From Escherichia coli (GTDB lineage: Bacteria > Pseudomonadota > Gammaproteobacteria > Enterobacterales > Enterobacteriaceae), in assembly GCF_003019035.1 (NCBI RefSeq), contig NZ_CP027447.1: 64,000 nt of DNA; one strand, written 5' to 3'. Under the pieces are notes generated by a model. That model was not told the DNA's origin, made no database searches, and was given only the letters and a program-made list of their open reading frames with translations. Each line of letters begins with the position of its first letter. The first letter of the stretch is position 1. Positions 1-2,048 of the stretch are shown here, piece after piece. The translations under genes were made by a program, and so were the position numbers.

Positions 1-453
1 GAAATTTTTGCTTATCGAAAACAAAATAAAAAACAGCACGCCTGCTGCAAGTAAGTCTTGCCCGGAGCCGGGTGTTGAGCGGAAATATTCATTGACCAGA
101 AGTGCAAGGCTGGCCAGTTGAAGAATAACCTTGCCAACAAGACCGCGAACGAAAAACTGTTTCACCCTTTCTGTTGACCAGAAACAGGGGTTTTTCAAAA
201 CTTCACGTTGTTCCTCAGCTGGAAAACCATGGATGTAAACGATCCAGTGTGAGTTTTCGGTTAGTGTGAGTGCTGTTCCTGTTTCATTGAGACGGTGTAT
301 GCGCATTGATATAGCAACGGGGAAAACGATGCCGATAAAAACGATGTAAAAAAATGGGGCAGAAATACCAAATGAGGCAAGAACAATGCAAAGCAATGCG
401 ATAAGTAGCATTATGACTTTGGTAAAGAATGGCGAGAATAGCTGATAATTCAT
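1..453 (-). CDS. hypothetical integral membrane protein, N-terminal part only (gene runs off the left edge)
   Basis: Own translation of minus strand from ATG at 453-451: MNYQLFSPFFTKVIMLLIALLCIVLASFGISAPFFYIVFIGIVFPVAISMRIH..., open for about 150 codons to position 1; strongly hydrophobic; absent from ORF track because no stop lies inside the window. Confidence 0.4.
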   Translation of the reverse strand, partial: MNYQLFSPFFTKVIMLLIALLCIVLASFGISAPFFYIVFIGIVFPVAISMRIHRLNETGTALTLTENSHWIVYIHGFPAEEQREVLKNPCFWSTERVKQFFVRGLVGKVILQLASLALLVNEYFRSTPGSGQDLLAAGVLFFILFSISKNF

Positions 454-543
454 TGCAAGATCCTTTTGTTATGAAGGCAGGCAATGTATCACTGGTCATT
501 AACGACCACTATGTATGGGTGATTTTTTCGGATTTCATAAAGC

Positions 544-564
544 AAAAAGCCCGCCGAAGCGAGC
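544..564 (-). terminator. intrinsic terminator at the 3' end of the tRNA operon
   Basis: On the minus-strand RNA: GCUCGC-UUCG-GCGGGC hairpin (one G-U pair) followed by a U-run, immediately after glnX. Confidence 0.5.
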
Positions 565-574
565 TTTTTTAATG

Positions 575-649
575 TGGCTGGGGTACGAGGATTCGAACCT
601 CGGAATGCCGGAATCAGAATCCGGTGCCTTACCGCTTGGCGATACCCCA
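575..649 (-). tRNA. glnX: tRNA-Gln (anticodon CUG)
   Basis: 75-nt match to the tRNA-Gln sequence on the minus strand, ending in CCA; anticodon loop reads CUG; first gene position in the conserved operon order. Confidence 0.9.
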
Positions 650-686
650 ACTGGGTGCACTTACAAGGTAAGCGTCTTGAATAAAT

Positions 687-761
687 TGGCTGGGGTACGA
701 GGATTCGAACCTCGGAATGCCGGAATCAGAATCCGGTGCCTTACCGCTTGGCGATACCCCA
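687..761 (-). tRNA. glnV: tRNA-Gln (anticodon CUG)
   Basis: Identical 75-nt copy of the preceding tRNA-Gln(CUG). Confidence 0.9.
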
Positions 762-809
762 ACAAATTGGTTTGTGAATTTGCCGAACGCATTCGACACA
801 TTCAGAATT

Positions 810-886
810 TGGTGGCTACGACGGGATTCGAACCTGTGACCCCATCATTATGAGTGATGTGCTCTAACCAACTGAGCTACGTAGCC
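810..886 (-). tRNA. metU: elongator tRNA-Met (anticodon CAU)
   Basis: 77-nt minus-strand sequence GGCUACGUAGCUCAGUUGGUUAGAGCACAUCACUCAUAAUGAUGGGGUCACAGGUUCGAAUCCCGUCGUAGCCACCA. Confidence 0.9.
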
Positions 887-901
887 AGATTGTTTCTTCG
901 A

Positions 902-976
902 TGGCTGGGGTACCTGGATTCGAACCAGGGAATGCCGGTATCAAAAACCGGTGCCTTACCGCTTGGCGATACCCCA
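902..976 (-). tRNA. glnW: tRNA-Gln (anticodon UUG)
   Basis: 75-nt tRNA-Gln with anticodon loop reading UUG on the minus strand. Confidence 0.9.
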
Positions 977-1009
977 ATAACCGGGCGGTGAACCGCTTAC
1001 TCGAAGAAG

Positions 1010-1084
1010 ATGGCTGGGGTACCTGGATTCGAACCAGGGAATGCCGGTATCAAAAACCGGTGCCTTACCGCTTGGCGATACCCC
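1010..1084 (-). tRNA. glnU: tRNA-Gln (anticodon UUG)
   Basis: Identical copy of the tRNA-Gln(UUG) gene. Confidence 0.9.
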
Positions 1085-1108
1085 ATCCGTACAACGCTTT
1101 CTGGTGAA

Positions 1109-1193
1109 TGGTGCGGGAGGCGAGACTTGAACTCGCACACCTTGCGGCGCCAGAACCTAAATCTGGTGCGTCTACCAATTTCGCCACTCCCGC
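1109..1193 (-). tRNA. leuW: tRNA-Leu (anticodon UAG)
   Basis: 85-nt class II tRNA on the minus strand with long variable arm; anticodon loop UUUAGGU. Confidence 0.9.
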
Positions 1194-1201
1194 AAAAAAG
1201 A

Positions 1202-1278
1202 TGGTGGCTACGACGGGATTCGAACCTGTGACCCCATCATTATGAGTGATGTGCTCTAACCAACTGAGCTACGTAGCC
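1202..1278 (-). tRNA. metT: elongator tRNA-Met (anticodon CAU)
   Basis: 77-nt sequence identical to metU; first gene of the operon (promoter lies at higher coordinates). Confidence 0.9.
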
Positions 1279-1610: not shown

Positions 1611-2048
1611 ATGCTGCGTTTTATGACGGCGCTGATGGGTGCGTTATTACTTATGCAATCTGCGTTTGCCGATACGGTCAAACCGGAAATCGGTAAATAT
1701 GTTTTTGGCTATCGTGGGCAGGAAGGCGCTGTGGTGTGGATGATGCGGATAGGGCCGAAAGCCTCTAATGAAGCCCTCATTCAGGTATCGCATGTTGATA
1801 ATGACATCGATGGCCAGATTTTTCGCTGTAAAGTGAAAGCATTACAGGAAGGTGAAAAATCCTATACCGCCGTAATTAAGGGCAAATCTTTTGAGTTATT
1901 ACGCCTGAAAGAGGGGAATGGCAGCCTGCATATTCCGGATGAGCAGGCGACCTGGTCGGTGGCCTACAGTGATGAATTGTCAAACAGTGATGTGGCAAAC
2001 CCGGAACATTTCCTTACTGCATATCAGAATCAACAAGCACCTCAATAA
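1611..2048 (+). CDS. hypothetical small secreted (periplasmic) protein, 145 aa
   Basis: ORF with GAGGGA Shine-Dalgarno 7 nt upstream of ATG; N-terminal signal peptide MLRFMTALMGALLLMQSAFA followed by DT; followed by a strong hairpin terminator; not recognised by me as a named gene. Confidence 0.55.
   Translation: MLRFMTALMGALLLMQSAFADTVKPEIGKYVFGYRGQEGAVVWMMRIGPKASNEALIQVSHVDNDIDGQIFRCKVKALQEGEKSYTAVIKGKSFELLRLKEGNGSLHIPDEQATWSVAYSDELSNSDVANPEHFLTAYQNQQAPQ

Follow-up and report, generated by a model that had tools for sequence, protein, structure and literature searches.

RESULTS

An Open Frame at the Window Edge

The left edge of the window (the whole 64,000-nucleotide stretch of Escherichia coli contig NZ_CP027447.1 that was analyzed) holds the beginning of a minus-strand gene, which starts a short distance from the end of a tRNA operon. 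The features at this end of the window are as follows.

1–453, minus strand: first 151 codons of a 194-amino-acid gene, with the ATG at 453–451 (open frame, annotation, homologues, dN/dS, and AF2 model)
461–467, minus strand: Shine-Dalgarno sequence AAAAGGA, 7 nt upstream of the ATG (read from the sequence)
483–491, minus strand: candidate extended −10 element TGaTACATT, about 30 nt upstream of the ATG (a TGnTAnAnT-like block)
544–570, minus strand: intrinsic terminator hairpin of the metT-leuW-glnUW-metU-glnVX operon (inverted repeat with an A-run and a T-run)
575–649, minus strand: glnX (tRNA-Gln CUG), which closes the tRNA operon; on the same strand as the open reading frame (ORF), whose start lies 121 bp downstream

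From position 453 to position 1, all 151 codons of the frame are free of stops. Only 7 of 20,000 mononucleotide shuffles of window 1–453 keep this frame open. The plus strand of the same interval has 9, 5, and 10 stops in its three frames, with a longest open run of 46 codons, and the other two minus-strand frames are also closed. The encoded peptide begins MNYQLFSPFFTKVIMLLIALLCIVLASFGISAPFFYIVFIGIVFPVAISM... and is strongly hydrophobic; four of its 19-residue windows exceed 1.6 on the Kyte-Doolittle scale. The ORF is missing from the mechanically generated ORF list because that list omits frames cut off by the end of the source.

Positions 1–574 are 100% identical over 574 bp to the chromosome of E. 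coli SCU-301 (NZ_CP051751.1), a commensal of phylogroup F and ST967 (PMC11251922). In that chromosome the frame runs 44 codons past the position of the window edge to a TAA, with neither a frameshift nor an earlier stop, and the remainder of the gene together with its stop reaches 135 nt past the left edge. The full coding sequence in SCU-301 is 585 nt long and specifies 194 amino acids; PGAP annotates the product as hypothetical protein WP_096986900.1. A preliminary description of this DNA had reported a hydrophobic minus-strand ORF that starts at 453, continues past the edge, and is absent from the ORF track, opposite a plus strand closed in all frames. Each of these observations stands, and the ORF is a real one.

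The ubiF-glnX Junction in SCU-301 and K-12

In SCU-301, ubiF is intact. It is encoded on the plus strand and meets the 194-amino-acid gene tail-to-tail. Six base pairs separate the two stop codons, and the ubiF stop is located about 138 bp to the left of the window edge. Beyond ubiF, the genes miaB, ybeZ, ybeY, and those that follow are in the K-12 order. The preliminary description rightly placed ubiF before glnX on the K-12 plus strand. It had also taken the hydrophobic gene to stand at the window edge instead of ubiF, a view that we abandoned, along with any replacement or deletion of ubiF, since ubiF is intact 6 bp past the ORF stop.

The end of ubiF and glnX are 153 bp apart in MG1655. 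When the SCU-301 and K-12 junctions are aligned, homology extends up to the ubiF stop and returns exactly at the tRNA-operon terminator (AAAGCAAAAAGCyCGCCGAAGCGAGCTTTTTT in the alignment). The terminator therefore marks the right-hand end of the segment in which SCU-301 departs from K-12. Both junctions thus share the ubiF stop as the left flank and the terminator AAAAAGCTCGCTTCGGCGAGCTTTTT as the right flank. They differ in what lies between: a repeat of about 118 bp in K-12, versus about 680 bp in SCU-301 that contain the gene, its Shine-Dalgarno sequence, and its upstream region. The K-12 filler is a dispersed palindromic repeat that folds into a long hairpin and is found in a median of 22 places in each E. 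coli genome. No repeat feature is given for the ubiF-glnX filler in the K-12 record; from a reading of its sequence, we class it as a REP-type element. What the gene replaces is this repeat of about 118 bp and not ubiF. K-12 lacks the 194-amino-acid gene at the junction and shows no relic of it: tblastn gave no match in K-12 even at E ≤ 100, and with blastn-short the shared terminator was the sole match.

Close apposition of the two stop codons (0–10 bp) was seen in several loci (L001 19860–19871; L005, L007, L027, and L028). With no terminator between the two genes, ubiF transcripts must read antisense through the whole of the 194-amino-acid gene, up to the tRNA-operon terminator at window 544–570, whose flanking A-run and T-run make it potentially bidirectional. 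In K-12, the REP element and the terminator come directly after ubiF.

Distribution in E. coli

The gene is present in 9 of 5,426 complete E. coli genomes, which fall into two lineages. SCU-301, with its own allele, constitutes one. The other comprises eight human isolates (TUM14771, GN02461, GMF054, 4621, MS 69-1, TUM1226, 755, and OX030728) that are 97.2–97.4% identical to window 1–574. Five of the eight were examined; all five encode the identical protein WP_001109102.1 (97% identical to WP_096986900.1), and four of the five share the same UbiF protein. About 5,365 E. coli genomes, K-12 among them, carry the REP filler in place of the gene.

The other flank of the tRNA operon carries a 145-amino-acid ORF (window 1611–2048, plus strand, between metT and asnB). 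Its N terminus resembles a signal peptide (MLRFMTALMGALLLMQSAFA/DT), and the protein has no match in Pfam or NCBIfam. The ORF is absent from K-12 and is full-length in 985 of the 5,426 E. coli genomes. The five other carriers of the 194-amino-acid gene that were examined lack it, and the two genes are therefore unlinked. The preliminary description had concluded that both flanks of the operon carry strain-specific genes. It is true that the 194-amino-acid gene is missing from K-12, but "strain-specific" is too strong: this gene occurs in two E. coli lineages and is syntenic in about 11 Enterobacteriaceae genera (see below), and the 145-amino-acid ORF is a common accessory gene.

Relatives and Their Genomic Setting

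A word-indexed search with the 194-amino-acid protein retrieved 24 protein clusters, all from Enterobacteriaceae, with E values of 1e-124 to 1e-35 and 99–100% coverage of the query. They comprise Buttiauxella, Citrobacter cronae, C. freundii, Intestinirhabdus, Superficieibacter, and unnamed metagenomic sequences. An exhaustive profile search extended the family to 75 representatives at a 50% identity level, of which 49 had E ≤ 1e-10; nearly all are about 195 amino acids long and matched from end to end. They include Pectobacterium, Providencia, Pragia, Trabulsiella, and Scandinavium, with Corallincola, Chitinilyticum, and a Flavobacteriales metagenome-assembled genome among the more distant members. 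The family is characterized by its length of about 195 amino acids, four transmembrane (TM) helices, and a conserved motif, Y-x-x-G-[IF]-P-x-x-E-x-R-x-x-L-x-N-x-x-F; most Enterobacterales members begin with MNYQ. Every member is annotated as hypothetical. The RefSeq entries WP_096986900.1 and WP_001109102.1 are the same protein as ours (100% and 97% identity), and the Buttiauxella, Citrobacter, Klebsiella, Pectobacterium, and Providencia relatives are full-length homologues that show no difference from it in kind. Because these entries come without a name, a domain, or a tested function, membership of this family conveys no functional information.

Within Enterobacteriaceae the gene occupies a fixed slot: asnB, the metT-leuW-glnU/W-metU-glnV/X operon, the 194-amino-acid gene, convergent ubiF, and miaB. 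It lies about 120 bp after the last tRNA-Gln gene, on the strand of the tRNA operon. This arrangement was confirmed in Buttiauxella, Intestinirhabdus, and Citrobacter cronae, and, among ten GTDB species representatives, in Pseudocitrobacter (two species), Klebsiella michiganensis, K. spallanzanii, Superficieibacter (two species), Kluyvera genomosp. 3, and Enterobacter sp. BIGb0383. It also holds in Trabulsiella and Scandinavium, whose proteins are only 32–34% identical to that of E. coli. In total, the relatives that share the slot span about 11 Enterobacteriaceae genera and are 32–60% identical to the E. coli protein. Outside Enterobacteriaceae (Pectobacterium, Providencia, Pragia, Corallincola, and Chitinilyticum) the neighbors differ in every genus and the gene stands alone. 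With no conserved partner there, the gene's association with ubiF and with the tRNA operon is one of position rather than function, and assignment of a role through guilt by association was rejected.

Two ISL3-family transposase genes were encountered, one between the gene and ubiF in Buttiauxella brennerae (L004 6163–6909) and one beside the family member of Pectobacterium brasiliense (L008 3315–4358). They are the only mobile-element genes seen near any family member and are unrelated to it.

Sequence Conservation and Divergence

The gene is real and intact, and the pattern of substitutions is that of a coding sequence maintained by selection. Between the two E. coli alleles there are 9 synonymous and 7 non-synonymous differences (dN/dS 0.23, dS 0.069). 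Between genera dS is saturated, dN is 0.34–0.42, and dN/dS is about 0.10–0.25. Judged from these ratios of 0.1–0.25, the gene is under purifying selection. An alignment of 15 sequences from several genera contains 31 invariant columns, among them H53, R54, E57, G59, W70, Y73, G76, P78, E81, N88, P89, C90, F91, R96, and K108. The invariant columns form two clusters, SM(R/H)(L/I)HRL(N/S)E-G-A...W..Y..G.P..E...(K)NPCF.S..R...FF and, toward the C terminus, W-QCE-LT...GS-W-QG. A terminator-like hairpin with a T-run (GCAGCAGGCGTGCTGT TTTTTATTTT) lies within the coding sequence at window 33–48 on the minus strand (codons ∼136–145). It is probably fortuitous; the residues encoded there are not conserved in the family.

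The 194-amino-acid protein diverges far faster than its neighbors UbiF and MiaB. Identity to the SCU-301 protein across genera is 32–59%, compared with 73–90% for UbiF and 85–97% for MiaB. The nearest counterpart of the E. coli protein is that of Pseudocitrobacter (59% identity) and not that of Citrobacter (52%), for which UbiF identity is 90%. Pairwise distances for the gene and for ubiF gave a Spearman coefficient of −0.01. In neighbor-joining trees and Mantel tests, congeneric pairs cluster, whereas deep nodes are either unresolved or incongruent with ubiF and miaB. The GC content of the gene is 43%, against 56.5% for ubiF.

A comparison of SCU-301, TUM14771, and K-12 revealed that ubiF (L001 18687–19862) is itself far more divergent than miaB, with 6–18 versus 0–8 mismatches per 200 bp, and the ubiF alleles of the two carrier lineages are very different from each other. 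Such diversity suggests either that this region is a hot spot of recombination or that the polymorphism is old.

Signs of mobility were sought around the gene. The SCU-301 segment has no flanking direct or inverted repeats and no integrase or transposase, and its boundary lies after the operon terminator rather than inside a tRNA gene. Insertion of a mobile element or a tRNA-targeted island was rejected, since no integrase, transposase, target-site duplication, or terminal repeat was found. In tblastn searches, no match was obtained in 72,556 plasmids or in 50,697 phage records.

Upstream Signals and the tRNA Operon

Upstream sequences from nine genera (13 in all) were aligned. A block A-A-(A/T)-G-G-(A/G), which corresponds to the Shine-Dalgarno sequence, is kept at equal distance from the ATG, and the sequence of the operon terminator is invariant. 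About 8 of the 13 upstream regions have the TGnTAnAnT-like block, always in the same position; in the remaining 5 it is missing or altered. No recognizable −35 element accompanies it, and a two-hexamer promoter scan reported no promoter at TGaTACATT. We infer from its position and sequence that the block is a candidate extended −10 promoter of the 194-amino-acid gene.

The copy number of tRNA genes in the metT-glnX operon (window 575–1278) varies across the loci compared (L014, L018, L022, L024, L025, and L007). Six tRNA genes are found in Buttiauxella, in Enterobacter sp. BIGb0383, and in E. coli 4621, which has lost one tRNA-Gln(CUG). There are eight in Superficieibacter electus and in the type strain of Intestinirhabdus alba. 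In the Citrobacter cronae locus, ARAGORN detected no more than two tRNA-Gln genes.

Predicted Topology and Structure

Hydropathy analysis gives four TM segments, at residues ∼10–28, 33–50, 101–121, and 134–156. Over 53 family members, the mean number of lysines plus arginines is 0.04 in loop 1 and 0.5 in loop 3, compared with 7.3 in the 50-residue loop 2 and 4.9 in the C-terminal tail. Following the positive-inside rule, this distribution places the N terminus, loop 2, and the C terminus in the cytoplasm. The periplasmic exposure of the protein is predicted to be minimal. Conservation is unevenly spread: loop 2 scores best (0.81), the TM helices score 0.52–0.64, and periplasmic loop 3 scores 0.29. 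Conservation is strongest in loop 2, the 50 residues that connect TM2 to TM3, and in a 40-residue C-terminal β-meander.

AF2 returned a confident model from the 15-sequence alignment (pLDDT 80.5, pTM 0.73). It has long helices at residues 3–27, 32–57, 94–125, and 132–158. Loop 2 contains two short helices and some short strands, and residues 163–188 form a sheet of three strands. In the model, loop 2 and the C-terminal part are separate segments, both cytoplasmic; their association into a single small juxtamembrane domain is a guess on our part. The succession of a TM hairpin and a small β-rich soluble segment, twice over, is reminiscent of membrane-anchored proteins of the bPH/YdbT type. An internal duplication of a unit of two TM helices plus β structure was considered. 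When residues 1–97 were compared with 98–194 by hhalign on the 53-sequence alignment, the probability was 0.7–1.5% (P ∼0.03–0.04), which is not significant. A global alignment of the two halves matched in topological register and was likewise not significant.

Attempts to assign a function by Pfam, NCBIfam, PADLOC, PHROGs, and PDB sequence profiles yielded nothing. A Pfam scan of the 194-amino-acid protein at E ≤ 10 returned three chance matches only, with no colicin-immunity family among them, and NCBIfam gave no match. The same was true of Pfam for the 53 family members, colicin-immunity families included. In PADLOC-DB and PHROGs the query had no match, and at most 1 of the 53 members matched marginally (E ∼0.004–0.009). 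No match to PDB sequences was found by profile search, nor any structural match by Foldseek in PDB or BFVD. A literature search with the accession numbers and with ubiF, glnX, and intergenic as terms returned nothing relevant.

DISCUSSION

Window 1–453 is very probably the 5′ three-quarters of an intact accessory gene, presumably expressed independently, whose product would be a four-TM protein of the inner membrane and which is an old resident of a fixed chromosomal slot. Transcription would start from the gene's own candidate extended −10 promoter. The TM bundle may serve only to anchor the protein in the inner membrane, leaving the conserved cytoplasmic segments to bind a partner or ligand. 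At the level of the genome, the gene would be an old occupant of the slot between the glnX terminator and ubiF and would have been lost repeatedly. A REP-type repeat would have taken its place in most E. coli, with the gene surviving in two rare lineages. An anchor with binding segments fits better than an enzyme, a transporter, or a periplasmic receptor, because the TM helices and the tiny periplasmic loops are poorly conserved or lack conserved charged residues. The best statement of function that we can infer is therefore an accessory inner-membrane anchor with conserved cytoplasmic binding segments.

How the gene came to be in so few E. coli strains can be read in more than one way. A frame that has no annotation beyond hypothetical, that more than 99% of E. 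coli have lost at no obvious cost, and that would be read antisense from a convergent ubiF with no terminator in between might be a decaying or non-functional remnant, that is, a spurious or pseudogenized frame that persists unexpressed in a few strains. Truncated and frameshifted copies do exist, for example in Citrobacter freundii P0024. Such a remnant is nonetheless very improbable: the frame is full-length and intact in all nine E. coli carriers, evolves at a dN/dS well below 1 with 31 invariant columns across 15 sequences, retains a conserved Shine-Dalgarno sequence and start codon, and keeps a length of about 195 amino acids across 75 distant representatives. A recent import into E. coli from another Enterobacteriaceae genus, by homologous recombination through the highly conserved flanks formed by the tRNA operon and ubiF, is possible, if somewhat unlikely. 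The rarity of the gene in E. coli, its low GC content relative to ubiF, a tree that is incongruent at depth with those of ubiF and miaB, and the unusual diversity of ubiF between E. coli strains (6–9% per 200 bp, compared with 0.5–4% for miaB), which suggests frequent recombination here, all speak for import. However, no donor has come to light, the nearest relative outside E. coli being 59–60% identical, and the region carries no mobile-element signatures. The dS of 0.069 between alleles implies either that the gene is old in E. coli or that it entered twice from one unseen source, and the carrier lineages have very different ubiF alleles. A dS of this size is within the ordinary range of divergence between E. 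coli lineages. The most economical reading, which we favor, is that of an old resident that evolves fast and has been lost repeatedly, given its fixed slot in about 11 genera, the dS between alleles, and the lack of a close donor. The low GC content and the mismatch between the deep phylogeny of the gene and that of its neighbors would fit lateral replacement through the conserved flanks equally well.

As to what the protein does, its size, its four TM helices, the predicted cytoplasmic location of its two termini, its fast evolution (32–60% identity, against 73–97% for its neighbors), its patchy presence, its low GC content, and its invariably monocistronic setting bring to mind an orphan immunity or exclusion factor that guards the inner membrane against a membrane-targeting toxin or phage. 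Such a protein would resemble the four-TM immunity proteins of pore-forming colicins or the small membrane proteins of superinfection exclusion. The immunity proteins of the pore-forming (A-type) colicins are indeed of similar size, with four TM helices, cytoplasmic termini, low GC content, and fast evolution. Yet there is no profile match between them and the 194-amino-acid protein, with no Pfam colicin-immunity or other family found even at E ≤ 10 and no PADLOC or PHROGs family that matches more than 1 of 53 members. Colicin immunity genes are typically plasmid-borne and adjacent to the colicin gene, whereas the 194-amino-acid gene is chromosomal and sits in a housekeeping slot next to ubiF and tRNA genes. 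Colicin immunity proteins are also not known to have a large conserved cytoplasmic loop and a C-terminal sheet, both of which are predicted here. The gene was not found on plasmids or phages, and no toxin, defense, T6SS, cdi, or rhs gene is adjacent to it in the roughly 20 loci examined. Its most conserved part is cytoplasmic, and the TM helices and periplasmic loops, where specificity would be expected to reside, are the least conserved. A fixed housekeeping slot in 11 genera is also unlike an orphan-immunity island. Given these points, an immunity or exclusion role is very doubtful. A broader proposal is that the family is an undescribed, fast-evolving class of inner-membrane protein involved in conflict or niche adaptation, kept for a very long time as a presence/absence polymorphism at the one housekeeping slot between the glnX terminator and ubiF throughout Enterobacteriaceae. 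Protection against a membrane-acting toxin or phage and modulation of a conserved cytoplasmic partner are examples of what this could entail. Its expression might be coupled to ubiF through obligatory convergent (antisense) transcription, since no terminator separates the two genes. We regard this proposal as unlikely.

The gene reported here is an ordinary accessory gene whose product was already annotated as a hypothetical protein and whose family is undescribed. It leaves the current view of ubiquinone synthesis, of the tRNA operon, and of E. coli genome architecture unchanged. Its main value is to annotation and comparative genomics, and the family could receive a DUF-type model. What is noteworthy is the combination of a fixed slot across Enterobacteriaceae with rarity in E. 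coli. An undescribed family of small membrane proteins, for which there is no model in Pfam or NCBIfam and no structural relative in PDB or BFVD, has its home at the ubiF-glnX junction across Enterobacteriaceae, and the familiar K-12 junction, with its space filled by a REP repeat, would be the derived state.
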